Virus record (IMG/VR): IMGVR_UViG_3300031867_004305
Location: 32,001-96,000 of that record
Strand: one strand, 5' to 3'
Source of the DNA: a virus
Lineage: Duplodnaviria > Caudoviricetes
DNA length: 64,000 nt
The translations under genes and the position numbers were made by a program. The notes beneath the pieces are model-generated. The model made no database searches and was not told the origin of the DNA. It saw nothing but the letters and a program-made list of their open reading frames with translations. Below, in pieces: positions 28,042-47,016 of the stretch. Within the stretch, counting starts at the first letter, position 1. Every line of letters starts with the position of its first letter.

Positions 28042-28171
28042 GTGTTTGGGTTTTAAAATTGGGCGGGATGGAATTTCAGGCCGGGTGTGGAATTTGGGCA
28101 GCCCTTAACATAAACTTAACATAAACTTAACATTTTCCTTAAATATAGCCCCGGGGTCGGCCGGGCGAGTC

Positions 28172-28517
28172 ACTTTAGTCTGCTAAAGTGGTGTCGTGGC
28201 ATCACTTTACTATAGTAAAGTGACAATTTAACATAAATTTAACATTTTAATATCACACTTTAGCATATTAAAGCATGAAATTCTACCGCAGGGGTAGGAT
28301 TATTTCATATTCAAAAAACCCAGTAGTATGGTGGTATTTTATTTTATCAACGGCACACACGATAACCACCTGGCCCATCGTTTTAGTAGGAAAAGATGGT
28401 AGGGGCCCACTTTAGCATACTAAAGTGCTAAAGTGCTAAATCCTACTGTTTGGCAAGACTTTCATATAGTAAAGTGCTAAATCCTACCGTGAGAATACAC
28501 TTTCATATACTAAAGCG
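28172..28517. repeat. Cluster of CACTTTA-N6-TAAAGTG palindromes
   Basis: Copies near 28172, 28203, 28256, 28408, 28458 and 28498; further copies near 31490, 31610, 32286 and 46549. Confidence 0.85.
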
Positions 28518-28523
28518 AGGGCT

Positions 28524-28964
28524 TTACGCCCTCGCCATCGCTTTTGCTATTGTGGTTTCATTCGCAAGACTTGCGGATTCAAATTTGATTTGGTATTTTG
28601 TACCGTTGATGGTGATATCGCCGTCGATGTAGTAGGGGATGGAATCTTTGTGCCACTCTTGCCCGGCGTTTTCGGTGATCCACTGTTCGAACGCTTCGCC
28701 TTTATTCTTCCGGCTTGCGAGGACTTCCGAGGCGGTACCGATGTAGGCGGCACCCATGTTAATCAGGCGGTGGCGGGCGATGGTGTTCATCCGAATGCGA
28801 AGCTTGCGAGCACCACCGTGGGAAGTGCTTTCCCTGTCCATGCCAACCAGCCACTCAGGCAGGTCGTTCAGGTAGATGGTGTAAACCTTGTCATTCATCA
28901 GGAAGCCGATGATGTAGGCCATCGCGGCGGTAGTGGCTTTGTAGGCGTTCAGCAGGTTCATCAT
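28524..28964 (-). CDS. Small PD-(D/E)xK-like protein
   Basis: NKGEAFE...DGDI...YQIKFESASL motif; own promoter and SD. Confidence 0.5.
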   Translation of the reverse strand: MMNLLNAYKATTAAMAYIIGFLMNDKVYTIYLNDLPEWLVGMDRESTSHGGARKLRIRMNTIARHRLINMGAAYIGTASEVLASRKNKGEAFEQWITENAGQEWHKDSIPYYIDGDITINGTKYQIKFESASLANETTIAKAMARA

Positions 28965-29063
28965 GGTGGTTACCTCTCTTTCGTTGCTTTCTAGGTATAT
29001 TATACACCTTGACCGGGCAGATGTCAATAAGGTTTATGTTAACTGTGTGTTAAAGGTTGAGGC

Positions 29064-29231
29064 TTACGCCTCAACCTTCCAGTCGTGGCGGATGCGCTCC
29101 AGCGGCCACCCATCACGGTCGATGGTGTGCTCCCACACGTTGCCATTCTCATCAAGGTAGGCGATGTGCGTCAGGGTGATCGGCCAACCGTCGCGGTCGA
29201 TGGTGTGCTCGTAGGCGGTGATCTTCTTCAT
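29064..29231 (-). CDS. 55-aa protein with duplicated EHTIDRDGWP motif
   Basis: Own promoter and SD; internal repeat. Confidence 0.7.
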   Translation of the reverse strand: MKKITAYEHTIDRDGWPITLTHIAYLDENGNVWEHTIDRDGWPLERIRHDWKVEA

Positions 29232-29462
29232 TTTGTAGCACCTCTCTCTCATTTCTTGACTATATTATAGCACACTGGAATAGCAATGTCAATAGGTTTT
29301 TTGCGAATTAACAGACGCTTAACAATCGACGTCCGCAGGTCCAGGTCTTGGTTAGTCATACCTAACTCGTGCCTTCACTCCTCCCTGTCCTTCCTTTCCG
29401 GTGCAACTATATTATAGCAAAAAAGAAGGCTTTTGTCAAGCCCTCTTTGTGTTAAGTTGATA

Positions 29463-29627
29463 TTAAAGAATACCAGTTATTTTTGCCACCAGCGGAGACA
29501 AGATCAGCATTAACAGACCAGCGATCATGCCCCAATTTACCAACCAATGAGGATCATCAGCATGGGCGATGCCCACAAAGCAAGCAACTACAGCAATTAT
29601 CACATACACAGGAAGAATCCACATCAT
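29463..29627 (-). CDS. Two-TM micro membrane protein (paralog of 34213 and 40692)
   Basis: Manual translation MMWILPVYVIIAVVALLVGIAHADDPHWLVNWGMIAGLLMLILSPLVAKITGIL. Confidence 0.7.
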   Translation of the reverse strand: MMWILPVYVIIAVVACFVGIAHADDPHWLVNWGMIAGLLMLILSPLVAKITGIL

Positions 29628-29833
29628 TGTTTTTCTCTCCTTTTTTTTCTCTCTTTCGTTGACACTATTATAGCATATAGCCGGGCGTTTGTCAATACTT
29701 TTTTATGTAAAGTATGTGTAAACTTCTCCGCCGGTCAAATATGATTAGTTAGTGAAAACTAACTCCACTGGCCGAGTTAGTTCAGACTAACTAACTCTCT
29801 AATATAAAAAATAAAGGGTTTGCACCCTTTATT

Positions 29834-30124
29834 TTAGAAATTGAAATTATCAATTGTACCACAATAGCGACAGGAAACAATCACATCGTCGTAAATAATT
29901 TCCGTGTTATTATCATCCATCAGACAAGCACACAAGTCATTAACATTCCAGTCCTCACAGCCGTAAAACTGCCAAATGTTCCCGTTCGCGTCAACCACGT
30001 CCACCAAATCAGTAGAATAGTCAACATTGACAACCTTAGTAACCATTGCGTAATCCTCAGCGAGAGCATTAACACCAACCACCATCAGCACGACCACCAT
30101 CAGCATCATAATCGTGTTCTTCAT
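29834..30124 (-). CDS. Small secreted/membrane-anchored protein
   Basis: Signal peptide-like N-terminus (ALA/E), own promoter. Confidence 0.7.
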   Translation of the reverse strand: MKNTIMMLMVVVLMVVGVNALAEDYAMVTKVVNVDYSTDLVDVVDANGNIWQFYGCEDWNVNDLCACLMDDNNTEIIYDDVIVSCRYCGTIDNFNF

Positions 30125-30285
30125 TGTTGTTTATCTCCTTTGCTTTTGTTGTATATAGTATAACACACATCTATTCACTTGTCAATACCTTTTTGTGTTT
30201 TCTTTTGTAAAATCTATATTAAGCGTCTGGCCGGCCAGAAAGTTAGTTTAGACTAACTAACTGATCCAATAAAAAAAGATGGGGA

Positions 30286-30444
30286 TTATTCATCCCCATC
30301 AATCCAGCCCATCGCAAACTCATAGGCGATCTCAATGATCGTGTAATCGTTCGCGCGCTCGCACTCATTGAAGAAGTAGATCGTGGCAGGGTGTTCGAAA
30401 CCGAAAGCGCGAATCACGTTGTTTTTCATCTCATTGATCTTCAT
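30286..30444 (-). CDS. 52-aa hypothetical protein
   Basis: AAGGAGG SD, own promoter, terminator hairpin over the stop (MKINEMKNNVIRAFGFEHPATIYFF...). Confidence 0.65.
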   Translation of the reverse strand: MKINEMKNNVIRAFGFEHPATIYFFNECERANDYTIIEIAYEFAMGWIDGDE

Positions 30445-30539
30445 TATGGGTTCCTCCTTGCTTTTGATGTAATTATTTTACCACACGCCAAGACCTTTGT
30501 CAAGAGGTTTTGAAAAAATTTTTTTGTTAAGATTCGGGA

Positions 30540-30710
30540 CTACTCGATGTAGTCCCGAACCTCGTCGTTCGTCAGGTCCAGTTCCTCAGCGATGACTTCC
30601 ACCGCCTCATCGATCCAGAACAACTGTTCCTCAGCGGTCAGGTCCTCCCACGCGCCCATCAGATTCTCGTTGATGTAGGCATCCATCATGGTATTGATCT
30701 TGTTAGTCAT
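30540..30710 (-). CDS. 56-aa highly acidic protein
   Basis: MTNKINTMMDAYINENLMGAWEDLTAEEQLFWIDEAVEVIAEELDLTNDEVRDYIE; SD and promoter. Confidence 0.7.
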   Translation of the reverse strand: MTNKINTMMDAYINENLMGAWEDLTAEEQLFWIDEAVEVIAEELDLTNDEVRDYIE

Positions 30711-30884
30711 TGTGGTGTCCTCCTTGCTTTTGTTGTATTCATTATAACACCTATCCGGCTATTTGTCAATACCTTTTTTGTATTTTTCTTTGTAAAGTTT
30801 GTGTTAAGCCTCCGGCCGGCCCGCGCGAGTTAGTTTATGCTAACTAACTATTATATTAATAAAAAAAGAGGGCTTAAACCCTCT

Positions 30885-31031
30885 TTATGCTACATACCCT
30901 TCGATCATTGCGGCTACTTCATGTGCCCACATATAATCATTGTATGCGCCATAGAACCATTTTTCTCCATCAACAACACGGTAAACGATAAAGCGATAAT
31001 TGGTAGCGTAGGCAGGCATGTTGTTAATCAT
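30885..31031 (-). CDS. 48-aa protein (paralog of 31202-31318)
   Basis: FIVY...FYGAYND..WA.E.AAM shared with the neighbour; own promoter and terminator. Confidence 0.7.
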   Translation of the reverse strand: MINNMPAYATNYRFIVYRVVDGEKWFYGAYNDYMWAHEVAAMIEGYVA

Positions 31032-31201
31032 TTTGATTACCTCTCTCATTTGATGTATATATTATAGCATAAAGTATCGAGAATGTCAATACCCTTTTAA
31101 AAAATTTCTTTGTAAAATCTAAGTTAATGATCTGGCCGGCCAGAAAGTTAGTTATAACTAACTAACTATTAAAATATATAAAAAAGAAGGCTTTTCAGCC
31201 T

Positions 31202-31318
31202 TCAAGCAACTTTTCCGCCCACCATAGCAGCATATTCTTTAGCCCACTGCAGATCATCAAAAGCACCGTAAAAATACTTGATGCCCTTTTCCTCAACGTA
31301 TACGATGAACTTCTTCAT
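31202..31318 (-). CDS. 38-aa protein (paralog of 30885-31031)
   Basis: MKKFIVYVEEKGIKYFYGAFDDLQWAKEYAAMVGGKVA; AAGGAGG SD. Confidence 0.7.
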   Translation of the reverse strand: MKKFIVYVEEKGIKYFYGAFDDLQWAKEYAAMVGGKVA

Positions 31319-31489
31319 TGTTGTTTCCTCCTTGCTTTTGATGTATTTATTATAACATGCCTTTGTTATTTTGTCAATACCTTTTTGTGTTAATTGTGTA
31401 TTAACTTATTTATTTCCAGGATCGTGATTAGTTTAATTAAACTAACCGCTTTTCTGGCCTGCATAATGGGCCAGAACTTATTGATTCAT

Positions 31490-31629
31490 TACTTTATCAT
31501 AGTAAAGTGATTCAAATTTGCCCTACAGGCCAATTTTAGCGGGCCAGGCAACCGGCCGGTTTATTATTCGCGCGAAATCGCCTTAAAACGAAAATTTGAA
31601 TCACACTATCACTTTACCATAATAAAGTG
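31490..31629. repeat. Nested inverted repeat centred on AACCGGCCGGTT
   Basis: GTGATTCAAATTT (31507-31519) and AAATTTGAATCAC (31592-31604) share their dyad centre with the palindrome at 31550-31561. Confidence 0.75.
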
Positions 31630-32029
31630 ATAAATATAATGAACTGGCCGGACCAGTTAGTTTTGACTAACTAACTATTACAAAAATATTACAGCTTTAT
31701 GCGACTTTCTTTTGTGAGGGCGTTTTTAAGGGGTAAAACAACCGGCCGGTTTATTATACACGAAAAAAACGGCTCTACGCGGCGATACGAAAAAAATGCA
31801 CAAAAAGTTAAACCGAAATATTAATTCCAGGTTAAGAAACACTCTACGAAAACGATTTCCGCAGGCCAAATTAACATATCCATAACACTTTTTCTTAATC
31901 TTTTGTGCAATTTTTTTCAGTCGTAGGCCACGGGCATTTTGAACAAAAATTAAATATGAAATACTTTTGTAATAATTAAATAGTTTTGTAATAATCACTG
32001 GCCGGGAGTTTGACTATCTTTGACCTTTG

Positions 32030-32320
32030 ACTTTCATCATAGTAAAGTAGTAGCATAGTAGCATGGTAAAGTAATAGCATAGCATCATAATAAAGTGGCA
32101 CCATAGTAGTATAACATCATAGTAAAGTAGTAGTATGATAACATGATAGCATAGTAAAGTGATAATATAGCATCATAGTAAAGTGGTAGCATGGTAGTAT
32201 GATAAAGTGGTAGCATAGTAAAGTGGCAGTATGGTAAAGTGGCAACATAATAAAGTGATAGCATAGTAGCATAGTAAAGTGGCACCACTTTACCATGATA
32301 AAGTGGTAGTATAGTGATAA
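32030..32320 (+). repeat. Degenerate tandem repeat of CATAGTAAAGTGRYAG-like units
   Basis: About 10 or more TAAAGT-containing units plus CATAG fragments; the unit equals the right half of the CACTTTA-N6-TAAAGTG palindrome. Confidence 0.85.
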
Positions 32321-32660
32321 CAAGCCGGCCAGTTAGTTTAGACTAACTAACAAGAGTTAGTTATAACTAACTATGGGGTCCCCCGTATATTATACCACAT
32401 CAATGTTAACTGCGTATTATCCTCATATTAAAAGTATATGAAGTTTTTTGTTAAGAATAGGTTAAGAAATGATCCGGCCCGCGAGTTAGTTTAAACTAAC
32501 TAATCAACTGGTGGTTGCACAACCTGGAGTAGAATCAACCTGGAGTAGCAAATTCTACCATAGGTTGAATCTCACAACTTTACATGGATTTAATCAAAAA
32601 ATGCTTACCAGTTAACATTGATCTGTTATAATGTATACAGTTGAAAGAGAGGTGCTTGAA

Positions 32661-33128
32661 ATGAAGATGACCCGCGAAATTAACCTGACTTACACCTACG
32701 ACGCCACGCGTAAGGGAGCCAAGTACAGTATCAACGGAGGCGAAAGCTGGCTCAATGGTGGCGAGTTCGCGGAAGCTGTCGCCAAGGCACTCCACGGGCT
32801 GGATCCCCGGAAGGACGCTAACACCCGCTTCGACGAAGGCTCCGACGTGCCCGAGTTCCACGCGAGCGTCAAGAGCTCCAAGGCGAGCCTGACCAACATG
32901 AAGCTGGCTGACAGCTTCGAGGCAAGCCTGACTGCCTACTTCGAGCAGGTGGCAAGCTCCGAGTTCTGGTACGTGACTACCACCGACGAGCTGGCTACCA
33001 TCTACAAGATGAACGCCACGAAGTTCGAGCGGTTCCTGCGGAAGTTCGCTAAGCTCAACGAGCGTGGGGTCATCCGGATCGCGGCCACCAGCTCCAAGAT
33101 GCTGGCATGGTTGGACGCCAACGCCTAA
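32661..33128 (+). CDS. Small PD-(D/E)xK-like protein, related to 28524-28964
   Basis: NGGEFAE...GSDV...SVKSSKASL motif. Confidence 0.5.
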   Translation: MKMTREINLTYTYDATRKGAKYSINGGESWLNGGEFAEAVAKALHGLDPRKDANTRFDEGSDVPEFHASVKSSKASLTNMKLADSFEASLTAYFEQVASSEFWYVTTTDELATIYKMNATKFERFLRKFAKLNERGVIRIAATSSKMLAWLDANA

Positions 33129-33728
33129 CGGCGAGCGTCCAACCACCTGGCTGGGAAATTAACAAAACCTTAACTTGACAAGCTACGCCAGCTGTGATAT
33201 AATGAGTACAACGAAAGGCAAGGAGGAAATGAGAATGAAGATGTGGCTGGTTGACTACCGCGGCACCGACGGTGCCACCTACACCCGCAGGATGTCCTGC
33301 GAGGTCCTGGAGCTCCTGGAGGAGCTTGGGCCCCAATACGGGGTTGAGGTCTTGGGAGCTATTGAGCTTCCTTGACCTCAAGGTATAAAACGAAAGCAAT
33401 TAACCAAATACAAATTTCACTAAAACTTAACTTGACAACTGAATAAATCCATGATATAATAAGTCCATCAAAGGAAAGGAGAAAACAAAATGTTTGAGAT
33501 TTACAAGATCAGCACTGACAGGATTATCCTGTCTGGTCTCTCCCTGCGTGAGGCGCAGGCTCTCCGCCTGACTTGGGCGGATCGGGCGGACTTGATTGTC
33601 CGCCCCATGGCCTAACGGAGAGCATAGGCTCTCCGCTGGCCGGCCCGTTTATTAACAAACTCTTAACTTGACAATTCTCTTTTTAAGTATTATAATATAT
33701 ACAGAAAGTAAGGAAAGAGGTAATCAAA

Positions 33729-34100
33729 ATGTTGTTCGGACGTAAAAAGAGGATGCTTAAGCGTGAACGCGAAATGTATTGGGAGTGTTCTGGTGAATGG
33801 TACTTTCGCGTGGAATACCATGAGGATTTCGCTCCCACGCCTTCTTACATGTACTTTGAAAGTTTGCGAGACGCAGAATATTGGGCAAAGACTGATCGCC
33901 GTGCTTCTTTCATTCTGTGTGTAACTGACAGACAGGGCAACAGGATTATAACTGACTGGACTGGTTATACTGGTGCTGGTACTGTTAATATGTGGACTAA
34001 TATAATGGGGCGTCAAGTTCTTGACTTGCGAAAAGACCATAATGAGTTGTGGGTATCCAACAACAGTCCTCGTGCCAAAGAAGTAAAACAGGGATTGTAA
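33729..34100 (+). CDS. Hypothetical protein
   Basis: Own promoter at 33669, SD, hairpin at the stop. Confidence 0.7.
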   Translation: MLFGRKKRMLKREREMYWECSGEWYFRVEYHEDFAPTPSYMYFESLRDAEYWAKTDRRASFILCVTDRQGNRIITDWTGYTGAGTVNMWTNIMGRQVLDLRKDHNELWVSNNSPRAKEVKQGL

Positions 34101-34212
34101 AATCCCTGTTAATTTACTGGCCGGCCCGCAACTTAACATACTCTTAACACAAAACCTATTGACTTTCCTGGCTCAATGGTGTATACTAGTATCAGAAAGT
34201 GAGGGAAAGAAA

Positions 34213-34389
34213 ATGAAGTTTTTGATGATTCCTTATGTGTTAGTTGCTTGCCTGTTTGGTTTCTTTGGTATTCTCCATGCGAATGATGTTGATGAAAATG
34301 ACTACTTCAAAGTTAATTGGCGTATGATTGTTTTCCTTATTATGATGATGTTGTCACCCATTCCAGCTAAGATCTTTGGTTTGCTTTAA
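34213..34389 (+). CDS. Two-TM micro membrane protein
   Basis: VNW.MI...M..LSP..AKI.G.L shared with 29463-29627. Confidence 0.7.
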   Translation: MKFLMIPYVLVACLFGFFGILHANDVDENDYFKVNWRMIVFLIMMMLSPIPAKIFGLL

Positions 34390-34461
34390 CAAAAACTTAA
34401 CTTGACAACCACCAACCAATCTGCTATAATAAATACAGAAAGAGCGAAGGGAGTAATTCAA

Positions 34462-34713
34462 ATGAAGTTCTACATGGTCATGTGTCACAGAGGTCATTGC
34501 GGAGTGGGTCACAGCACTGAAATCAAGTTCGCAATCGCGGCGAACAATCTGCTCGAAGCGTGTGACAGGGCAAAGCGGATGCCGAGCGTGAAGCATACGC
34601 GAATGGCAATCTACGGCAAGGAAATCACCGAGGAAGAATATAGAGAGTATCGCTCCATTAGTGCTTACGAACGCTTCAATCAGAGCCAGCACAAATCTCA
34701 ACGCAGACGTTAA
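34462..34713 (+). CDS. Small His/Cys-containing basic protein
   Basis: Promoter at 34402, SD; CHRGHCG. Confidence 0.7.
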   Translation: MKFYMVMCHRGHCGVGHSTEIKFAIAANNLLEACDRAKRMPSVKHTRMAIYGKEITEEEYREYRSISAYERFNQSQHKSQRRR

Positions 34714-34836
34714 GTCTGCGTTAACTTTCTGGCCGGGCATCAACTTAACATAGAATTAACTTGACTTCTTACAAAATCTATGCTATACTATATACAACAA
34801 GTGAAGGAAACACTTTAAAACCAGGAAGGTAAGAAA

Positions 34837-35100
34837 ATGAAGAAGATTATTACTATTGCTTTGATTATCACTCTGTGCTTGACTCTCACCGCGTGCCAAA
34901 TTGGCAATCGCAAAATCGGTTTCGACACTACGCAAACTTTCCGTTGGGCTATTGTTCAATTGGGCAACGGTGAACTGATTGAAGGTTCTGTAGATTCTTG
35001 GCGAGACTTTGACAACTCTGACACTATTCAAGTTACTATTAATGGCATTACTTACTTAACTCACTATAGTAATGTCATCCTAACGACCGAGAAGCCTTAA
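34837..35100 (+). CDS. Lipoprotein
   Basis: Signal peptide with lipobox LTAC. Confidence 0.7.
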   Translation: MKKIITIALIITLCLTLTACQIGNRKIGFDTTQTFRWAIVQLGNGELIEGSVDSWRDFDNSDTIQVTINGITYLTHYSNVILTTEKP

Positions 35101-35197
35101 TAGCTTCTCGGTTATATTTATGTTAAATTCGCAGCCGGCCCGTGACTTAACAAACAATTAACTTGACTTCGCATCAAAAATATGCTATTATATATAT

Positions 35198-35370
35198 GTC
35201 GAAAGGAAAGAGGGAGTGATTCCATTGGGTTAGAGTAAGGGGCAACAGACCACTTGGCGGTGGAGAACTGACCTCACGATTACATGAAAACCGTTCCCCA
35301 TTAACCTTGGGCAAGTTAATGATGTTTGAAGCCTACCGCGAGAGACTGATCAACTCTCGCGGTTTGTTAT
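35198..35370 (+). ncRNA. Candidate structured ncRNA (~170 nt)
   Basis: Promoter TTGACT-17-TATTAT at 35163, no credible ORF, several stems, ends in terminator ACCGCGAGAG..CTCTCGCGGT-TTGTTATTT. Confidence 0.55.
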
Positions 35371-35900
35371 TTTAATGTTAATTTTCTGGCCGGCCAGAAA
35401 TGTTAATTCTATGTTAACTATCCTAAAAACACTTGACATTTTATTTTACTTATGATATAATAATTACAGAAAACAAACGAGAGGAGACATCCTAAAATGA
35501 CAAAGCACAATTTCATTTCTACATGGGAAGATCTGAGCGATCAGGAACAAGTTTACATGTGGTGGGAATATAACGCGGCGAACCCTAATGAGGAAATTTC
35601 ATTTTCTGAGTTCGATGAAATGATGGCGGGATTCACTTTCGAGTGAATCCCATTTCATTTTAATTTTTAATTTAATGTTAAGGTACTGGTCGGCCAGCGA
35701 GTTAGTCATAACTAACCCACCTCTTTTTTATTTATTATACCATTCCAATTTCATTTTCGCAAGCACAATAATGTTAATTTCATTTTAAATTTTCACCCGG
35801 CCCGAAATGTTAAATCCAGGTTAAATCATCCTTTAACCTCTTGACTTTTGCCGTCGCCTGCTGTATAATATATACAGAAAGAGGAAAGGAAGTAAACAAA

Positions 35901-36341
35901 ATGAAGCAGACGATCTGGTTTGACATGGACGGCACTATCGCGAACCTCTACGGCGTGGAAAATTGGCTCCCGATGCTGATTGACAGCAATCCCGCTCCCT
36001 ACAAGCTGGCGACTCCGCTGGTCAACATGAACAAGTTGGCGCGGACGCTGAACAAGCTCCAGCGAGCTGGCTACAAGCTCGGTATCATCAGCTGGCTGAG
36101 CAAGTCCAGCACTCCCGAATATGACAAAGCTGTGACCGCCGCGAAGCTATGGTGGCTCCGCAAGCACCTTAACTCGGTAAAGTGGGATGCGGTTAACATC
36201 GTCGCCTATGGTCGCAACAAATGGGACGTGTGCGGTGAAGGAATCCTGTTTGATGACGAAAAACCGAACCGTGACAATTGGGGCGGTGAAGCCTTCCACC
36301 CTGACGAAATGATGAAAGTTCTGTCGAGCCTGACCGCTTGA
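35901..36341 (+). CDS. HAD-superfamily phosphatase (5'(3')-nucleotidase-like)
   Basis: WFDMDGT motif I and ILFDD motif IV. Confidence 0.8.
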   Translation: MKQTIWFDMDGTIANLYGVENWLPMLIDSNPAPYKLATPLVNMNKLARTLNKLQRAGYKLGIISWLSKSSTPEYDKAVTAAKLWWLRKHLNSVKWDAVNIVAYGRNKWDVCGEGILFDDEKPNRDNWGGEAFHPDEMMKVLSSLTA

Positions 36342-38726: not shown

Positions 38727-38773
38727 ACGAAATCTTAACTTGACAAGGTTGGGAAATCGTGATATAATGAGGA

Positions 38774-38903
38774 TGTTGAGAGGACAAGAGCCAACTTGAA
38801 TAAAAATGGCCACAAACAGACTGCCAAGTAGAGAACGGGATTTATGAGCGTACACCTTTGGTTAAGGCACTGTTATTGTCTCCCGAAATAAAAACTCTCA
38901 ACA
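38774..38903 (+). ncRNA. Candidate structured ncRNA (~130 nt), module 1
   Basis: Promoter at 38740; closing stem TGTTGAGAG/CTCTCAACA; inner GACAA/TTGTC, AACAG/CTGTT and TGCC/GGCA; possible pseudoknot CGGGA/TCCCG. Confidence 0.55.
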
Positions 38904-38993
38904 AACTCTTAACTTGACATTATACCAAATCTGTGGTATAATAAATACATCAAAGGGAAGGAAAACCCACCAAACCAGAAAGGACAAAACACT

Positions 38994-39329
38994 ATGAAGA
39001 AGAACACCATCACCGCTCTGTACAACTACTTCGTGAACTCCGACGACACCATCGACCTGTCCGCTGTGGTTGAGGACATTCGTGCTGAGTATGAGCGTAC
39101 CACCGCGAAGTCTCAGGAGAAGGCTAACGCCTACGATACCGCGAAGCCCATCGTGTTCGGCGTCATGACTGAGCCGATGACGGTCAAGGAGATTTTCGCC
39201 AAGTGCGAGAACGACCTGCCCGATGGCTTCACCTCGCACAAGATCCAATATGCTTTGCTGAACTACTGGTGCGACGAGGTTGCCAAGATTGACAACGGCA
39301 AGGCTCCCTTCACCTACATGGTGAAGTGA
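38994..39329 (+). CDS. Paralog family B protein (helical N-terminus, winged-helix-like C-terminus)
   Basis: MTVKEIF..C...LPDGFTSHKIQY.LL...DEV.K motif shared with 42528 and 43451. Confidence 0.75.
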   Translation: MKKNTITALYNYFVNSDDTIDLSAVVEDIRAEYERTTAKSQEKANAYDTAKPIVFGVMTEPMTVKEIFAKCENDLPDGFTSHKIQYALLNYWCDEVAKIDNGKAPFTYMVK

Positions 39330-39517
39330 GACTAAACCGCCCTTCGGGGCGGTTTTCTTTTACATTTCATTCTGTTAAGTTTTCGTTAATTTTCGGGCCG
39401 GGCGTGGAGTTAACAATCATTTAACTTGCCCGGCCGCGAGTTAACACAATCTTAACTTGACTTTTATTCCTGGCGAATGTATAATAGATACAGAAATTAG
39501 GAAAGGAACTAAACAAA

Positions 39518-40228
39518 ATGATTCTTAACATCACTGACCGTTACATTCTGATTCTGGACGTTGAAACCGCAAACGACACCATCGACGCTATTGTCTATGA
39601 CATTGGCTTCATGTTGGTTGACCTTTACACAAACGCAATCTGTGAGCAGGGTTCTTTCGTAATTCGTGACACTTTCGTTTATGAACGCGAACTCGTAAAG
39701 GTTGCCTACTACGGCGATAAGATTCCTGAATACGTCGCAGACATTCAGCAGGGAAAGCGTCAAATGATTGACTTTTTGACGGCAAGGCGTCATATTCTTA
39801 ACTTGATGGAAAAGTATGATTGCCATACGGTTGGGGCGTACAATTGTAACTTTGACCGCAACGCTCTTAACACAACTCTCCGTTTCTTAACGAAATCTAA
39901 ATATCGCTACTTCTTCCCTTACTCTACTAATTTTGTGTGTATTTGGAATATGGCTTGCGATACCATCTGTCAGACAAGCGAATATAAAACGTTTGCCGAG
40001 ACTAACCGCCATTATTCCAATCATGGCAAAAATTATCGTGCCACCGCAGAGGTTGTTTACTCATTCTTAACAAATAACCCTGACTTCCACGAGGAACACA
40101 AAGGTTACGATGATGTTAAGATTGAAAAGGAAATTATGGAAAAGTGTCTGGAATATGACAAGAACTTTAAGGGAATAAAAAGAAACTGTTGGCAAAAAGT
40201 CAAACGGGGAGCACTCGCTCTCCGTTAA
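39518..40228 (+). CDS. DEDDh 3'-5' exonuclease
   Basis: LDVET, AYNCNFD and EEHKGYDD motifs. Confidence 0.85.
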   Translation: MILNITDRYILILDVETANDTIDAIVYDIGFMLVDLYTNAICEQGSFVIRDTFVYERELVKVAYYGDKIPEYVADIQQGKRQMIDFLTARRHILNLMEKYDCHTVGAYNCNFDRNALNTTLRFLTKSKYRYFFPYSTNFVCIWNMACDTICQTSEYKTFAETNRHYSNHGKNYRATAEVVYSFLTNNPDFHEEHKGYDDVKIEKEIMEKCLEYDKNFKGIKRNCWQKVKRGALALR

Positions 40229-40332
40229 TTTTATGTTAAGTTTCGGGCCGGCCGACCTTTACACAGAATTAACTTGACTTCTCTCTTGAATTTTGATATA
40301 CTATATATAGAAAAAGAAAGGAGATTTCAACT

Positions 40333-40587
40333 ATGACTGTTAAGGAATTGATTAAGGAACTCCAGAAAATGCCCGAAGATGCTGTTGTACTCGGCGATAT
40401 GTATCTTAATCAGTATTGCGTTATTGATACAGTTGAATATGATGACGCGACGAACACCATCTCGTTCTATGGCGAGGATACTTTTGAAGAACCTGACATT
40501 CCCGATGATGTAGACGAGACTAACTACGACCCCTACTGCGGTTGTGATATGTTTGAAATCTGCGGATCAATTGATGAGGAATGGTAA
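40333..40587 (+). CDS. Small acidic protein
   Basis: MTVKELIKEL start, Asp/Glu-rich, own promoter. Confidence 0.7.
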   Translation: MTVKELIKELQKMPEDAVVLGDMYLNQYCVIDTVEYDDATNTISFYGEDTFEEPDIPDDVDETNYDPYCGCDMFEICGSIDEEW

Positions 40588-40691
40588 TTAACCATTCCTT
40601 AACATTGGCCGGCCCACCATTTAACACAATCTTAACTTGACTTCCGCGTGCGAATCGTGTATAATTATATCAGAAAGTGAGGAATGCCATT

Positions 40692-40847
40692 ATGTTAGCG
40701 TTTAGCATTATTATTTTCATTTGGGGACTGTCGGGAATTTGTGGGTTGATAAATTGTAAAAAAGAAAGGATAATTTGGGAACTCTTAATTTTTGGAATTA
40801 TGATTCCTTTTCTACCTGTTTTTGCTAAACTATGTGGTTTAATATAA
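40692..40847 (+). CDS. Two-TM micro membrane protein
   Basis: Manual translation MLAFSIIIFIWGLSGICGLINCKKERIIWELLIFGIMIPFLPVFAKLCGLI. Confidence 0.6.
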   Translation: MLAFSIIIFIWGLSGICGLINCKKERIIWELLIFGIMIPFLPVFAKLCGLI

Positions 40848-40908
40848 ACTTAACTTGACTTTTATTTCCCTATCTGTTATAATAATTCCAGAAAGTGAGG
40901 AAACGCAA

Positions 40909-41049
40909 ATGGAAAAGAAAAATCAGAACCGCGAAACTTGGGTCGGCTATCGCCCCTCCGTCATTCCCGCGAAGAAGAAGAACAAGAAACGCGACCGCAA
41001 AGAAGGCAAGCAGATTTGCCGTAATGCTATGAAAGGAGAAAAGGATTAA
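40909..41049 (+). CDS. 46-aa basic peptide
   Basis: Promoter at 40855, SD; RPSVIPAKKKNKKRDRK. Confidence 0.6.
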   Translation: MEKKNQNRETWVGYRPSVIPAKKKNKKRDRKEGKQICRNAMKGEKD

Positions 41050-41762
41050 TGAGCTTTTGGAAAAAACAAGAATATTGGTATATTATTGATGAAAAATTTT
41101 TCGGATATAACCCTTATTGGTGGGGCGGTTGTGCGGTTGATAATAATTTAAATGGAAATAATAAAGGACTATATAGAACAATATGTCGCGTAGCAAAAAA
41201 TAAAAAACGTAAATCTCGCATAATAGAAAGGAAAATAAAAAATGCGAACCAATCTTGAAATCGCCGCCGAACTTATCGCCGCGGACGTCCGTAATCTCAA
41301 TAATATTGAGGAATATTGTGGCTATCCCGATTTCAATCGGCTTGATGGTATTGAACGCGACAAACTTTCTAAAATGGTTGATGAACTATTAATCATTATC
41401 TATCGGCGGCAAAACCGCCAGCGAATGGAATGGGAGAATAGTTAGTTCTCCCTAACTCCGCCCGGCCCGAGATTTAACAAACTTTTTACTTGACTTTTCC
41501 TGGATTTTGTGTTATAATAATTATAGAAAGTGAAAGGAGAAAGTCAAATGATTATTAACATCACTATTGACACCGATAACAATTTTGTTTGGGCAGTAGA
41601 TGAAAATCAGGAAACCAGCATTGACTATTCCGCGTGTGATCTTTCCGCAATATCCGTAGAAGAAATTATTAACGATTTCTTAACTTGACTTCTCCCGTCG
41701 AATCTGCTATACTATATCCAGAAGGTGAAGGAAAACACCACAAACCAGAAAGGATAACGCCC

Positions 41763-42167
41763 ATGAGTAAGGCTTCTCTTGAAACTGAAATCCGCAACAA
41801 CGTTCTCCAGACCATCATTGACGCCGTGAATCCCATCAGCGACATTCTCCCGATTAGTGCCAGCGAACTCGCTCTCCCCATCGTTGACAGCGAGGGCAAC
41901 GAAAAGTTTGCCGTTATCAAAGTCAGCATTCCTCGCGGTGAGCGTGACGGCAACGGCGGTTACATCCCCTTTGACGGTTACGCCGCCGCCGAGGATTGGA
42001 AACTGGTACTTGCGGATCGTGCCGATAAGGCGGCGAAACGCAAGGAAAAGGCGGAACGTGCCGAAAAGGAAAAGGAAAGGAAACGACAGGCACGCAAGGT
42101 TGTAAAAGACCTTAACACGGTGGGCTTTAAGGCTCTCGTGTCCCAGCCGATTAATGAGGGTGAGTAA
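41763..42167 (+). CDS. Paralog family A protein
   Basis: Alignment by eye; leader motif. Confidence 0.75.
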   Translation: MSKASLETEIRNNVLQTIIDAVNPISDILPISASELALPIVDSEGNEKFAVIKVSIPRGERDGNGGYIPFDGYAAAEDWKLVLADRADKAAKRKEKAERAEKEKERKRQARKVVKDLNTVGFKALVSQPINEGE

Positions 42168-42278
42168 TCACCCTCTTTGTTATTTTTATGTTAATTTTCA
42201 GGCCGGCCCGCTTTGTTAAGATTGTGTTAAATACTCCTAGAACTACTTGACTTTGAGTGGAGATTCTGCTATACTAAT

Positions 42279-42339
42279 ATTGTTGAGAGGGCAAGAAAAC
42301 CTCAAGACAAAAGGGTGAAAGTCCCACCCCTCTCAACAA
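42279..42339 (+). ncRNA. Candidate short ncRNA, module 2
   Basis: Promoter at 42248; 12-bp closing stem TTGTTGAGAGGG/CCCTCTCAACAA. Confidence 0.55.
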
Positions 42340-42527
42340 AATCTTAACTTGACAAACTCCAAGATTTCTGCTATAATGATTACATCAGAGAGGGAAACGA
42401 GAGGTTCAAAGTTCGAGAGGTTCCGAGAGAACTTAACAGAGACTTAACTTGACAAACTACTCCCAATCTGATATAATAAAGACAAGAGAGGGGAAGGAAA
42501 ACCCCACAAACCAGAAAGGGAATCATT

Positions 42528-42923
42528 ATGAAGAACACCATGACTTATGCCGTCGCTCTGTCCACCGCTATCGAGACCATGAAGGACACCAATCCCGAAG
42601 TTGCGGAGCGTCTGACCGCTCTGCGTGCGACCCTTGCGAAGCGTTCCCAGCGTAGCGAGGATTCCAAGGCTAAGGCTTCTGCGAAGCGGAAACAGCAGAA
42701 CGCCGAGAAGCGTGCCGAGATGTGTGCGGAGATCGTGCCGATTCTGCGTGAGGTCATCACCACGGACATGACCGCGAAGGAAATCTTCGCCGTTGCTCAG
42801 GATCGTCTGCCGAAGGACTTCACCGCGAACAAGGTTCAGGCGATTCTCCTGCGTGAGATGAAGGACGAGGTTATCAAGACCGAGACCAAGGGCAAGGCGA
42901 ACACCTATCGCCTTGCGGAGTGA
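42528..42923 (+). CDS. Paralog family B protein
   Basis: TAKEIF...LPKDFTANKVQAILL...DEVIKTETKGKANTY. Confidence 0.75.
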   Translation: MKNTMTYAVALSTAIETMKDTNPEVAERLTALRATLAKRSQRSEDSKAKASAKRKQQNAEKRAEMCAEIVPILREVITTDMTAKEIFAVAQDRLPKDFTANKVQAILLREMKDEVIKTETKGKANTYRLAE

Positions 42924-43086
42924 TAGAAGGGGCTAACGCCCCTTCTTTTTTTTATGGCGAGTTAGCCAGGACTAACTCGGCCGGGTAATGTAAAATGTTT
43001 GTTAAGTAATCGCCCGGCCCGCGATTTAACATAATCTTTACACAGAAAAGTATTGACAACCAGCGGATTTTCTGCTATACTATTAT

Positions 43087-43174
43087 TGTCGGTGGGGGAA
43101 ACGGGAGCGCGCAGGCGCAAGCGCGTTGTGGTAATTAGAAACATGCAACAGTTGATCGGCCACCTAAAGCCGAC
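43087..43174 (+). ncRNA. Candidate GC-rich ncRNA, module 3
   Basis: Promoter at 43053; GTCGG/CCGAC closing stem; internal GCGCGC..GCGCGT hairpin; no ORF. Confidence 0.5.
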
Positions 43175-43230
43175 TTAACAAAATCTTAACTTGACATTAC
43201 AGCCTAAAAGTGCTATAATGAATACATCAA

Positions 43231-43349
43231 GGGGAGCGAACGTGGCATCAGGGGAGCCACCACGGTAAGTCGCAAGACGATTGCGTAGGCCACTTGCAAA
43301 AGAGGGTCGTCCCATGAGGGATGGAGTTCAATTCTCCCGCTCTCCACCA
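43231..43349 (+). ncRNA. tRNA-like RNA with alanine-type acceptor (G3:U70), extra arms and encoded CCA
   Basis: 5' GGGGAGCG pairs with CGCTCTCC, followed by A-CCA; T arm GGAG-TTCAATT-CTCC; promoter TTGACA-17-TATAAT at 43191. Confidence 0.7.
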
Positions 43350-43450
43350 GATTATAACAGAATCTTAACTTGACAAATAGTTGAGAATCTGATATAATAA
43401 ATACATCAAGAGGACAAGGAAAAGTCCTAAAAACCAGAAAGGGATTTACT

Positions 43451-43840
43451 ATGAAGAATACCATCACTCGCGTTGACGCTCTGAACTACGCTATCAATGC
43501 CATCGACCAGTGTACCGAAACCGATGTTGAGGTCGTCGCTATCCTCGAGAAGATTCGCGATCAGATCGCGAAGCCTCGCAAGACCAGCGACACCGCCAAG
43601 GCGAACGCCAAGGCGAAGCGTGCGAACGCTCGTGCGGAACTGATGAAGGATGTTCTGCCCATCCTGCGGGATGCTCTGACCGAGGGCGGTACCGCCAAGG
43701 AAATCTTTGAGCGGTGTGCCGATATGCTCCCCGAAGATTTCACCAGTGCCAAGGTACAGTACATTCTGCTTCACGAACTGGCGGACGAGGTCGTTAAGAC
43801 CGAAGCCAAGGGTAAGGCGAATGTCTACACCCTGCGGTAA
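43451..43840 (+). CDS. Paralog family B protein
   Basis: TAKEIFERC...LPEDFTSAKVQYILL...DEVVKTEAKGKANVY. Confidence 0.75.
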   Translation: MKNTITRVDALNYAINAIDQCTETDVEVVAILEKIRDQIAKPRKTSDTAKANAKAKRANARAELMKDVLPILRDALTEGGTAKEIFERCADMLPEDFTSAKVQYILLHELADEVVKTEAKGKANVYTLR

Positions 43841-43974
43841 AAACAGAGGGCGAAAGCCCTCTGTTAATTTTTTGTTAAAAATCGGGCCGGGCCGTTAGTT
43901 AACCAAATCTTTACTTGACTTCTATCAAAATTGGGAGTATAATAATTATAGAAAAAAGAAAGGGGATACCGATT

Positions 43975-44184
43975 ATGGCTATCAACATTCGTCACACTTA
44001 CAGCACTCACGTTGAGATTACTTTCTATGCTGAAGATGGCATTACCCTGCGTTGTCGTGATTGCGGACAGATGGACGACATCGCCGAGCAGGTTTGTGAA
44101 GTTCTGGTTAAGCACGACTTTGCTTATGCCGATATCTGCTCCGCCGAAACTGGCGAGGTTCTCATGGTGATTGAGCGGACTTAA
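43975..44184 (+). CDS. Hypothetical protein
   Basis: Own promoter at 43915, SD. Confidence 0.65.
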   Translation: MAINIRHTYSTHVEITFYAEDGITLRCRDCGQMDDIAEQVCEVLVKHDFAYADICSAETGEVLMVIERT

Positions 44185-44291
44185 CGTCCGCTTAACATCT
44201 TCGCCCGGCCCACCCATGTTAAGTTTCTGTAAACCTATTGACTTTTGATCGCGATTTATGGTATTATATATATGTCAGGAGGGAACAGGAA

Positions 44292-44471
44292 ATGTTAGAT
44301 AAAGCCATTAAATCAGGCAAAGAACATCGTAAACCTTATTACGATACACGACGTTTTGATTGTACTTGTCGCAATCATGGTTCTTGTGATTGGTGTAAAG
44401 CAAATCGACTTTACCAGATTACCAGAGAAAAAGACAAAGCAAACAACAAACTTAATGAATACTTTACTTGA
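44292..44471 (+). CDS. Small Cys/His-rich basic protein
   Basis: CTCRNHGSCDWC; own promoter at 44238. Confidence 0.65.
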   Translation: MLDKAIKSGKEHRKPYYDTRRFDCTCRNHGSCDWCKANRLYQITREKDKANNKLNEYFT

Positions 44472-44546
44472 CAAATCCCAAATCCTGTGCTATAATATAA
44501 TCAAGAAGTGAAGGAAAACACTTACAAACCAGAAAGGGTCTACACT

Positions 44547-44882
44547 ATGAAGATTTCCAAGGCTATCGTCGATTCCAACATCCGCACCGCTATCTTCAAT
44601 GCTCTGAACGTTGCCAACATCGAAGGATTCCACAAGATCAACGACCGCCAGTATGGTTGTATCGTTGAGGATGTCAACGGCGAACGTCGCTACGCTCGCG
44701 TGGGTGTCATCGTTGCCGAGGTCCGCGAGGACTGTACCGCCGATGAACTGATGGCGTCTGAGATCGCGGACTACAACGCGAAGCAGGAAGCCAAGGCGAA
44801 GCGTGCCGAGGAACGCAAGGCGAAAGCCGAGCGTGACAAGGCGAAGCGTGAAGCCACCAAGAAGGAAAAGGAAGGGGAGTAA
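44547..44882 (+). CDS. Paralog family A protein
   Basis: Ends KEKEGE like 36673; leader motif. Confidence 0.75.
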   Translation: MKISKAIVDSNIRTAIFNALNVANIEGFHKINDRQYGCIVEDVNGERRYARVGVIVAEVREDCTADELMASEIADYNAKQEAKAKRAEERKAKAERDKAKREATKKEKEGE

Positions 44883-45012
44883 TCCCCTTCCTCCCGAAGG
44901 TTAACTTCATGTTAATTTTCGGGCCGGGCCAGAACTTAATCAAATCTTAACTTGACATTTCATTCAAAGCGGAGTATACTATATACAGAAAGAAACGAAA
45001 GGGGACTTCACA

Positions 45013-45246
45013 GTGGGCGTTTACATCGTGACTACCAATTACTTCATGAATGGCTTCTTCGGCATTTACACCACTGTCAAGCGTGCGCGTATTGCGCTTG
45101 AACAGTACTTTGCGGATGACGATGATGTCGTTGCGTTTGAGGACGTAGACAATTACAGCTATACCTTCACCACTCGTAACGGCGCACAGTTCAGCGCGGA
45201 AATTATGTGGGCCGATATTGACGAAGAATTCAAGGAGGATGAATAA
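45013..45246 (+). CDS. Small acidic protein
   Basis: Promoter at 44952, GTG start after SD. Confidence 0.6.
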   Translation: MGVYIVTTNYFMNGFFGIYTTVKRARIALEQYFADDDDVVAFEDVDNYSYTFTTRNGAQFSAEIMWADIDEEFKEDE

Positions 45247-45249
45247 TTT

Positions 45250-45441
45250 ATGAAGTGTCCTAATTGCGGAAATGAAATCTACGCGATCGATACCCTTGAT
45301 AGTGATTGTTGCGGTGACTCTTATTTTGATCGCGTTGAAGGCACTTGCCCCAATTGCGGCAAATCATGGCGATGGATTGAGGTTTTCACCTTTGACCATT
45401 GTGAAAACATAGAAGAAATAAAAGAGGACGACCATCTTTGA
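45250..45441 (+). CDS. Zn-ribbon protein
   Basis: Two CPNCG motifs. Confidence 0.7.
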   Translation: MKCPNCGNEIYAIDTLDSDCCGDSYFDRVEGTCPNCGKSWRWIEVFTFDHCENIEEIKEDDHL

Positions 45442-45504
45442 TGGTCGTTAACTTTATGTTAAAAAAACGGGCCGGGCAACATCTTAACAAAAAATTAAAG
45501 TGGG

Positions 45505-45858
45505 CTATTCGCCCACTTTAACCCATTCCAATTTTATCCAATCATATTCATACAAACCTACTTCATCATGCGGTAATTCATAACCAAAATAAGAATCAAT
45601 CAATTCCATAGCTTCATGCGAAATAATTTTCTTTACACGAATTTTTTCGCATCTGTCGAAAGCATATTTAATAGCATCTAATCCTTGCTCTACTCCGTTT
45701 AAAAAAATCCAGATATACCCGCCATTTTTCCCAAAGAAATCATAAGCATTAAAAAACTCTTCCAACAGATCAAAAGCCTTGCCCTCATATTCTTCGCATT
45801 CTTCAAAGTTATCAAACTCAGTGTCATCATAAGCAACATAAGTAACAACTTCACGCAT
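45505..45858 (-). CDS. Acidic hypothetical protein (inverted cassette)
   Basis: Own minus-strand promoter near 45918, SD. Confidence 0.7.
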   Translation of the reverse strand: MREVVTYVAYDDTEFDNFEECEEYEGKAFDLLEEFFNAYDFFGKNGGYIWIFLNGVEQGLDAIKYAFDRCEKIRVKKIISHEAMELIDSYFGYELPHDEVGLYEYDWIKLEWVKVGE

Positions 45859-46591
45859 ACTCAGTATCTCCTTTCCTTTTCTACATATATAATATCATAA
45901 ACCCAACCCAAAGTCAAGTTAAATCCAGGTTAATAAACCGCCCGCCGCGAACTTTACATAAACTTTACACAAACTCTGTTGCTTCTTAACAGTCGAATAT
46001 GGTATTATATACATACAAAAGGAAAGGGGATTTCAAAAATGTTGAAGTTCATTATCATGCTCGCGGTTTCCATTTGGCTCACTTCCTCTCTGTTTATGCT
46101 GTTCTTTTGGGCGAATGCTTTCATCACTACCTTGCGGAAAGATGGTAAAATTTTCCTGATGCCGTTTGGTCAATTCCTCTATTTCCACTTCTGCCCTATT
46201 GTACATACTGTCAAGTGCTTTAAAATCATGCGACAAATGGCCGAATTGACGAAACGCGGAGTGTAAACTCCGCGTTAAGTTTTCGCCCGGGCAGTAATGT
46301 AAATTCTATGTTAAGGAATTACCCGGCCCGAAATTTAACAAAAAGTCAACATAAACCCTCGCACAGATTTAACATTACTATGGTATAATATCGGGGGAGG
46401 CACCAGTTAGCCTAAACTAACCGAGTTAGTTGTGGCTAACTAACTTTTTCGGGCTTCGGGCTTCCCCTCTTCAGTATAGCACACTTTGTGTTAAGAATCA
46501 AGCATTTTTGTGTTAAGTTTAGGTTAAGTTCACACTTTAGCATGGTAGCACTTTAGCATGGTAAAGTGGTAAATCCCTAAAGTCCTACTAT

Positions 46592-46898
46592 TTGACTATA
46601 GTATAAATTTATGTTATAATTATTTTAGAAAGGGAGGGTTATATTACACGGCAAGCTGGAAACGGGCCCGCGAGCTGGAAGCTGGACAAGCTGGATACGA
46701 GCTGGAAGCTGAATCACCGGCCAGCTGGAACCAACGCCACACGAGCTGGAAATTCCTGGCCAGGCTGGCGAGCTGGAAAGCTGATGCCAAGTATTTGACA
46801 AGCTGGAACTTTCTGGCCCGTTAGGAGCCATATAGAAGCTGGAATTTTTTAAAAAAAATATCCCATTCTAGTATAACATAAATTATTTATTTTGTCAA
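46592..46898. repeat. AGCTGG(AA) direct-repeat array between convergent sigmaA promoters
   Basis: About 10 perfect and 3 near-perfect copies at 46654-46843; TTGACT-17-TATAAT (+, 46592-46620) and TTGACA-17-TATACT (-, 46898-46870). Confidence 0.8.
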
Positions 46899-47016
46899 AT
46901 AAATAATTATTTTTTATTTTAAAATAAAATTTTTTTATTTATTAAAATAAATTAAAATAATTTAAAAATAATTAAAATACTTTTCTTTTGAGAAAATAAA
47001 AATTGGAGGTACGAAA

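Follow-up and report, generated by a model that had tools for sequence, protein, structure and literature searches.

How can the small genes of a phage early region be gained, lost and exchanged without wrecking their regulation? In large phages, early regions of ORFan genes show the fastest turnover of host-takeover and anti-defense genes, and reshuffling that leaves regulation intact has been documented in detail mainly for T4-like phages, through the promoter-early stem-loop (PeSL) cassettes (Arbiol, Comeau and Krisch, 2010, PMC2839356; Comeau et al., 2014, PMC4122927). The locus studied here raises the question again in an unrelated clade of large uncultured siphophages, where the same solution is probably in use. 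It occupies positions 28070-46900 of a 64,000-nucleotide stretch, hereafter the window, which spans bases 32001-96000 of one phage contig of 181,042 bp (W, the studied genome). Coordinates follow the numbering of the window unless marked as genome positions; genome 60-80 kb is window 28-48 kb. In this region, single genes are joined by a recurrent palindromic junction element, in which an initial annotation, made from the letters alone, had seen an integron- or shufflon-like platform for gaining, losing and inverting cassettes.

The region and two representative copies of the element are as follows:

28070..46900, both strands: hyperplastic early-gene region, with ~40 small open reading frames (ORFs), ~43 sigma-A-type promoters and ~32 palindromic junction elements
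40203..40302, + strand: typical element, with terminator hairpin 40203-40226, GTTAA boxes 40224-40239, core CGGGCCGGCCG at 40244-40254, TTTAC/TTAAC boxes 40258-40273, -35 box 40274-40279 and -10 box 40297-40302
44866..44980, + strand: second example, with terminator, GTTAA boxes 44900-44915, core 44920-44930, right arm and -35 box at 44952

In the 18.8 kb of the array, the ORFs have a mean length of 88 aa, and 43 promoters satisfy a strict sigma-A definition; nearly every small gene carries its own consensus promoter, as had been noticed at the outset. Each junction has a terminator followed by a promoter, and both kinds of site are about 2.5-fold in excess (101 promoter-like sites against 40 in shuffled sequence, and 46 terminator-like sites against 17). 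Between the two lies the palindrome. The order is a terminator hairpin, a pair of GTTAA boxes with an 11-bp spacing, a GC core that forms a CG-centered palindrome (GGCCGGCC or GGCCGGGC), two TTAAC boxes, and the TTGAC of the -35 box, which in both examples is followed by a 17-bp spacer and an extended -10 box. These two sites (40225-40280 and 44900-44957) read just as the initial annotation had described them. The boxes are strongly conserved and the spacers between them are not; from box to box, the repeats are TT(A/T/C)ACA-like with an 11-bp period. The dyad symmetry ascribed to the spacer holds for typical copies, and is departed from by a variant of the leftward block, by direct-type copies and by core-less copies, all described below.

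The recurrence of the element is far above chance, although the ~40 copies first claimed come down to ~32 when a core with its arms is counted. With at most one mismatch, TTAACTTGAC has 33 matches against 6.9 expected, and TTWACA-N5-TTWAC has 35 against 0.42, all of them within 28105-46314. The restriction to one region, proposed from the window, extends to the whole 181-kb genome, where all 10 copies of GGCCGGCC, all 23 of TTAACTTGAC and all 34 of GTTAA-N5-7-GTTAA fall at genome 60-80 kb. The element therefore offers a simple sequence tag with which to find and delimit such variable regions in metagenomic phage genomes.

The element is also tied to a class of promoters. When promoters are anchored on the -35 box, the genome contains ~80 with a sigma-A consensus. 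At 26 of these, all in the array, TTAACA-N5-TTAAC abuts the -35 box, whereas 56 plain sigma-A promoters elsewhere have no arm. Since TTAAC-TTGAC promoters are found in the array only, the arms are a class mark of array promoters. The distance from the center of the core to the first base of the -35 box is 27 bp in 23 of 26 elements of the ACGT/CCGG type (see below), and in arrays of the GC type the values group at 24-28, 35-38 and 47-50 bp, the leftward block belonging to the 48-bp class. At 26, 37 or 48 bp, these spacing classes step by one helical turn. On standard promoter geometry, the dyad center would lie near -61, -72 or -83, on one face of the helix. Because of this phasing, the palindromic symmetry, and the conservation of the boxes as opposed to the spacers, the palindrome most likely binds a regulatory protein and is coupled to the promoter next to it. 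Such an arrangement suggests control of the early genes as a group, by shut-off or by activation; the array genes would presumably be expressed early.

If the junctions also serve for exchange, gene content should differ between relatives at these sites. Related contigs, labeled here G001-G005 or with L-numbers, were found by a pattern scan of IMG/VR and a terminase search; many were recovered, several of them complete at 157-184 kb. Across them, the protein families of the array form a conserved skeleton that is broken by many insertions, deletions, replacements and tandem duplications, and by some translocations. Neither the order nor the content of the genes is stable, and the gain and loss of cassettes predicted initially is borne out. 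As to the predicted inversion, a few families are oppositely oriented between genomes or blocks, with a protein identity of only 44-49%, and no recent inversion with mappable breakpoints was found among them, the DNA of these homologs being too diverged. W and G002 differ by whole-cassette indels and are otherwise collinear, at 70-91% DNA identity. Three of these indels were inspected by eye:

44180..44270, + strand: hybrid element, core 44202-44211, whose left half is that of the G002 element upstream, and whose right half is that of the element downstream, of a 378-bp cassette present only in G002
42156..42275, + strand: hybrid element, core 42201-42211, with the crossover at the core relative to a 438-463-bp G002 cassette
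39371..39485, + strand: double element, whose cores 39394-39404 and 39428-39438 enclose no gene

In the first case, the matches of the half-elements to G002 switch within the 8-9-bp core at 44202-44211, which places the crossover there. The double core is the scar of a 530-670-bp cassette that is retained in G002, L002, L007 and L059. Its junction, TTAACTTG|CCCGGCC, joins a -35 box, over 1 nt of microhomology, to the edge of the core that follows, and represents an imprecise event.

Crossovers were then mapped automatically by three-way comparison of W, G001-G005 and ~50 IMG/VR loci. This gave 59 clean events, reduced to ~31 independent events in the array once those in structural genes and duplicates had been dropped. 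They are distributed as follows:

At the core or at most 4 bp away: 15 of ~31, three of them in ACGT-type arrays
In the arms: 4 of ~31
In a promoter, leader or ribosome-binding site: 10 of ~31
At terminators or other sites: 2 of ~31
In ORFs: 0 of ~31

Of the 8.1 kb of intergenic DNA, 7% lies in the cores or within 4 bp of them (binomial P ~6e-10 for 15 of ~31). Among 155 pairs of adjacent elements, the longest exact repeat is the core in only 24 (15.5%; P ~2e-5). By both measures, the core is a real crossover hotspot, beyond what the length of homology predicts. Breakpoints of gain and loss thus cluster at the GC core, as had been predicted.

The core itself exists in three alleles. At least 12 related contigs follow the same element grammar; a central CG and outer TTAA(C) boxes are common to the three core types. 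Cores of the GGCCGGCC type, as in W, occur in G002, G004, G005, L088 and L097. The ACGT type (G001, L077, L078, L084-86) forms a sharp 34-bp palindrome, TGTAAATTA-N6-ACGT-N6-TAATTTACA, and the CCGG type (G003, L087, L105) forms the same 34-bp palindrome around a CCGG center. Within a genome, the cores can be almost uniform, with ACGT in 21 of 22 elements of G001, or mixed, as in G003 (CCGG 13, ACGG 4, ACGT 2, CCGT 1). Core type does not track terminase identity, since the terminases of W, G001 and G003 are 94-97% identical over their aligned parts (full length for G001 only) and their cores differ. One contig of 1.3 kb, L157 (ENA ERZ28653696 scaffold_343633), encodes a protein identical to the 134-aa product of 41763-42167, and carries an ACGT-type element upstream of the gene and a GC-type element downstream (285-330 and 1008-1060). 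It gives direct evidence that arrays with different core alleles recombine via shared cassette genes. The only very close strain found is a 26-kb ENA contig with a gene layout identical to that of W.

From these observations, and beyond the demonstrated architecture, regional restriction, core alleles, phasing, mosaic gene content and crossover positions, a mechanism can be proposed. Each small gene, with its host sigma-A promoter and intrinsic terminator, is an autonomous unit; composite junction elements join these units, and their palindrome would bind a regulator coupled to the adjacent promoter. The same element provides a short shared sequence for the exchange, deletion, duplication and replacement of cassettes. 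Because crossovers concentrate at the GC-rich palindromic core, the unit exchanged runs from half-core to half-core, and comprises right arm, promoter, gene, terminator and left arm. Recombination itself would proceed by general short-homology or replication-linked processes, as has been proposed for the PeSLs of T4, and not through a dedicated integrase. Thus the array is probably a system of PeSL-like regulatory cassettes in which recombination has its hotspot at a new core, palindromic and allelic. It offers a site at which to test whether shuffling of phage cassettes is driven by homology alone or assisted by an enzyme, and whether junctions can become recombination hotspots through a bound regulatory protein.

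Several points weigh against this proposal. The 11-bp steps in spacing may merely reflect the gain or loss of 11-bp box units, and the coexistence of core types in L157 and in G003 argues against a strictly allele-specific factor. The count of events depends on the manual removal of duplicates, and, in sequences that are 78-95% identical, crossover positions are good to a few bp. The lack of crossovers in ORFs is explained by selection against gene disruption. Finally, the over-use of the core relative to the longer promoter homologies exceeds what homology length would give, and GC-rich annealing or an unrecognized enzyme could be its cause.

The last of these points leads to the alternative that is closest to the platform first imagined. 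The array could be a true site-specific system, integron- or shufflon-like in function, in which an unrecognized nuclease or topoisomerase of the phage or host, or a novel recombinase, excises, inserts and inverts cassettes at the core, the alleles setting the exchange partners. Core crossovers are indeed ~3-fold above the expectation from the longest shared repeat, the core is intact in hybrid junctions, and a palindromic core could act in either orientation. The high uniformity of cores within a genome, such as the 21 of 22 in G001, fits as well, as do the half-site hybrids ACGG and CCGT of G003, which point mutation explains equally well. The phage also encodes type II topoisomerase subunits, one GyrB-like and, at the start of the genome, one GyrA-like (read by eye). 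However, a six-frame search of the complete genome with hidden Markov models, positive in control genomes, revealed no Phage_integrase (PF00589), Resolvase, RecT, ERF, RecA or YqaJ domain, and a search with SPBc2 YopR as query (E<=1) found no YopR/MrpR homolog; the tyrosine and serine recombinases not seen in the window are thus not found in the rest of the genome either. Moreover, arms, promoters and leaders take about half of the crossovers, one junction joins a -35 box imprecisely to the edge of a core, cassettes bring their own promoters, and no recent inversion was found. On these grounds, the integron- or shufflon-like mechanism is not upheld and a site-specific platform is decidedly unlikely. 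The more elaborate version is similarly improbable; here the core would be a recombination site for an unrecognized enzyme, on a phage-borne platform that either needs no recombinase or uses a novel one, with GGCCGGCC, ACGT and CCGG as compatibility groups among co-infecting phages and the site doubling as operator.

At the other extreme, the element could be purely transcriptional, made up of a terminator U-tract, an UP-like or activator site and a promoter, the apparent hotspot resulting from selection for intact junctions together with GC-rich annealing. The right arm does stand alone at core-less promoters, the left arm overlaps the T-rich tail of the terminator, the core is phased with the -35 box, and all crossovers are in non-coding DNA. 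Against this, crossovers in promoter spacers and leaders would also rebuild functional units, and these sites offer longer exact repeats, yet such crossovers are rarer than those at the core; in addition, gene-less double cores persist as scars. This explanation is therefore judged unlikely. It is very unlikely that the TTWACA-N5-TTWAC boxes (35 matches) are PHO-box-like sites for a host response regulator of the OmpR/PhoB family, linking early expression to a phosphate or other two-component signal of the host. The box sequence, its variants (TTAACA, TTTACA, TTCAC) and the 11-bp period do match the grammar of the Bacillus subtilis PHO box, TT(A/T/C)ACA with 11-bp periodicity (as quoted in PMC11870197), and the factor would have to come from the host because no Trans_reg_C (OmpR-type) domain is encoded in W. 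But the motif is short, the arms are inverted pairs around a core, unlike PHO boxes, and the promoters already have consensus -35, -10 and TG elements, so that activation should be unneeded, whereas PhoP-activated promoters normally lack a -35 box. Least credible of all is a structural role for the palindrome as a cruciform, a gyrase site, a topological insulator between strong, closely packed promoters, or a back-up bidirectional terminator. Some GC-type cores form, with their inner flanks, 7-bp hairpins followed by T-rich sequence (35383-35400, 30226-30239, 31642-31658), and the GyrB-like and GyrA-like proteins (the latter read by eye) could be invoked, but hairpin potential is not conserved in most GC-type copies, and the N5-6 spacers, being non-complementary, make for a poor long cruciform. 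A related reading of the core as an RNA hairpin was dropped, as it fits only a few GC-type copies, the ACGT/CCGG-type consensus having no complementary inner spacers.

The preferred reading, a PeSL-like cassette system, can be set against several known systems. In T4-like myoviruses, PeSLs likewise flank small ORFan genes of a hyperplastic region with a composite of a terminator and a strong early promoter of host type. Insertions, deletions and replacements between relatives cross over inside the motifs, with crossovers mapped between the -10 box and the Shine-Dalgarno sequence or ATG, or in AT-rich parts (PMC2839356, PMC4122927); here, the ~31 events all fall within the composite element. 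No dedicated recombinase is known for PeSLs, for which a DNA-binding helper has been the subject of speculation (PMC2839356, PMC4122927), and none was found in W. The analogy with the promoter/stem-loop cassettes of T4, drawn in the initial annotation, is therefore apt. The differences are nonetheless substantial: the present phage is a large siphophage with an SPbeta-like terminase (at most 38% identity) and extended -10 promoters of Gram-positive type, it has a 30-56-bp palindrome (phased TTWAC boxes and a CG-centered core) between terminator and promoter, which PeSLs do not have, and its element has another sequence consensus; in the clade, the palindrome exists in three alleles, and crossovers favor the GC core. 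New relative to PeSLs are the lineage of the phage, the presence of a palindrome between terminator and promoter, the helical phasing of this palindrome with the promoter, its three alleles, and the concentration of crossovers at its center.

The SPBRE operators of Bacillus phage SPbeta, which are bound by the recombinase-fold repressor MrpR/YopR (Kohm et al., 2023, PMC10516654), resemble the element in being repeated at early-region promoters of a phage with a related terminase, and they are demonstrated protein-binding operators. SPbeta also shares the layout, with structural genes transcribed leftward and small genes with stem-loops transcribed rightward. However, SPBREs are a 15-bp motif in ~10 copies that is not known to be linked to cassette shuffling, and neither a YopR homolog nor a Phage_integrase domain was found in W. 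The palindromes annotated in the SPBc2 record are unrelated in sequence (for example TTGTAATGCATTACAA, ~60 bp upstream of the yopM start codon).

With integrons and shufflons, the array shares single-gene units, imperfect palindromes between them, both orientations, and breakpoints at a short conserved core. It differs from integrons in that W has no IntI-type tyrosine recombinase and its cassettes carry promoters and terminators of their own, whereas integron cassettes are promoterless and depend on a common Pc. As regards the precise recombination at the attC core that marks integrons, the array is mixed, with about half of the crossovers at the core, the others elsewhere and one junction imprecise. 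The difference from shufflons lies in the absence of an Rci-type recombinase from W and in the nature of the units, each a gene in its own right, where a shufflon has alternative C-termini of a single gene. The host-takeover module of SPO1 is a cluster of many small early genes with multiple strong sigma-A promoters; no palindromic junction element or element-centered shuffling is known from it.

The array is divided into two main blocks of opposite transcription, within which individual elements vary:

28524..31400, - strand: leftward block of 8-9 single-gene cassettes
31400..32640, no strand: divergence region between the leftward and rightward blocks, without convincing ORF, with an 8-bp-period array and CACTTTA..TAAAGTG palindromes
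32605..46330, + strand: rightward block of ~30 cassettes, including two inverted islands
35363..35461, + strand: direct-type element, core 35388-35395, with GTTAA boxes in the same orientation on both sides and the -35 box 45 bp off
37059..38545, - strand: inverted island; cores 37032, 37904 and 38565 delimit and divide its three cassettes (57, 107 and 178 aa)
42332..42477, + strand: tandem core-less promoters, with the TTAACA-N5-TTAAC arm by the -35 box only, each predicted to drive an ORF-less transcript of ~100 nt
45505..45920, - strand: single inverted cassette (117 aa), flanked by cores 45468 and 45938

On the minus strand of the leftward block, the junction consists of a terminator, a AGTTAGTT..AACTAACT palindrome that substitutes for the left arm, the GGCCGGCC core, TTAAC/TTTAC boxes, and TTGACA ~48 bp from the core. 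In the direct-type element, the inner flanks form a TTTCTGG/CCAGAAA hairpin; the right-hand boxes are direct, not inverted, at cores 35388, 38602, 42201 and 46284, where the -35 box is farther off. Further core-less promoter sites lie at 38723-38942 and 43174-43398. Both inverted islands are bounded by the same element, and paralogs are scattered through the array, two features that had already been read from the sequence. Wherever a relative has the families of the three-cassette island, these are cassettes on the minus strand, at variable positions in the array.

Three regions that delimit and divide the array have another repeat vocabulary (CACTTTA..TAAAGTG palindromes, the tandem array at 32030-32310, and AGCTGGA repeats). 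At 32030-32310, exactly where leftward and rightward early transcription diverge, there are ~35 tandem units with an 8-bp period (TAAAGTG / CATAGTAG / TAAAGTGG), whose copy number accounts for a 248-bp difference from L063/L075. These units look like iterons, and are candidates for an origin, a partition site or a regulator array. Palindromes of the form CACTTTA-N4-8-TAAAGTG occur at 28170-28520, 31490-31640 and 46530-46600, that is, at both ends of the array and in its middle. The one at 46592 is directly upstream of a consensus promoter, a layout also seen in G001, G002 and G003. CACTTTA..TAAAGTG is a putative second operator-like motif, separate from the cassette element. Downstream of the 46592 promoter, at 46650-46840, a predicted ORF-less transcript contains about ten AGCTGGA(A) repeats; runs of GCTGGA are found upstream of promoters in G001 and G003 too.

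The proteins encoded by the array have few recognizable relatives. None of the 20 array proteins tested had a Pfam match above the family's curated cut-off, and for 10 that were tested no informative PHROG match was found; PDB sequence searches were empty. Two groups of genes can nevertheless be described:

42528..42923, + strand: one of three winged-helix paralogs (the others at 38994-39329 and 43451-43840), with a long helix and a C-terminal winged-helix domain in the AlphaFold2 model
39518..40228, + strand: largest array gene (236 aa), with DEDDh 3'-5' exonuclease motifs

The model of the winged-helix paralogs has a predicted local distance difference test score (pLDDT) of 81, and its closest PDB folds are PadR, Fur and ArsR-type regulators, with weak matches (E 5e-3 and above); the model makes the three paralogs candidate DNA binders. 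Each of their genes is preceded by two promoter-driven ORF-less segments of ~90-170 nt (38646-38990, 42245-42520, 43053-43445), which begin alike (GTTGAGAGG...). One segment, at 43227-43350, has a tRNA-like end (GGAGTTCAATTCTCC..CCACCA) with an 8-bp acceptor-like closing stem; ARAGORN and Rfam detected no tRNA or known RNA within the array, this segment included. A core-specific factor was also sought outside the array by co-variation, among proteins alike in W and G002 and divergent in G001 and G003; the candidates (permease, PhoH, nucleoside deoxyribosyltransferases and others) included no DNA-binding protein and were rejected.

The motifs DxE, NxxFD and H-x3-DD (H194, D198/D199) are invariant in nine homologs of the 236-aa protein, whose sequence thus predicts a DEDDh exonuclease. 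Four further small proteins, paralogous to one another and encoded at 36673-36996, 37374-37697(-), 41763-42167 and 44547-44882, have an alpha/beta head of ~80 aa and a long helical tail, rich in Lys, Glu and Ala, that ends in KEKEGE. They are conserved in all relatives, one of them at 96-98% identity; for this superfamily, a confident fold model found no match in the PDB.

With regard to the rest of the genome, no isolate similar at the DNA level was found when 8 kb of the array were compared by megablast with 50,697 phage records. To the left of the array are structural genes transcribed leftward. Identity of the large terminase (23995-25773) with its counterparts in Geobacillus virus E3, Enterococcus, Brevibacillus (YonF-like) and large Bacillus siphophages does not exceed 38%. 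W is a large siphophage with SPbeta/Geobacillus-E3-like structural genes. The tail module contains an ORF of 5,158 codons (genome 30133-45609; window part 2-13609, more than 4,500 codons), presumably the tape measure, which, if so, implies a very long tail. In three relatives, L100 (IMG/VR 3300032030_000399), L099 and L097, conserved genes by or within the terminase region contain insertions of 1,058, 1,008 and 1,272 bp, respectively; these have no relation to the cassette element and probably represent introns or insertions of homing endonucleases.

To the right of the array are a helicase, an RNA ligase, a kinase/HD protein, a deaminase and further nucleotide and replication functions. At genome 164-175 kb, W encodes two paralogous nucleoside 2-deoxyribosyltransferases, a permease of the xanthine/uracil family, a PhoH-PIN protein and a GIY-YIG endonuclease; several proteins of this region are much closer to those of G002 than to those of G001 or G003, which indicates mosaicism at the level of modules. 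The same region contains a C-5 cytosine methyltransferase (genome 173427-174371) that is present in W only, as compared with G001-G003. An idea that the cores are restriction sites was dropped, as the observed/expected ratios of CCGG, GGCC and ACGT outside the arrays are unremarkable. GCGC is scarce in W (observed/expected 0.26), with ratios of 0.69-0.90 in G001-G003. GATC is avoided in W outside the array (0.38) but not inside it (0.83), and G002 is alike; the arrays of G001 and G003 do avoid GATC.

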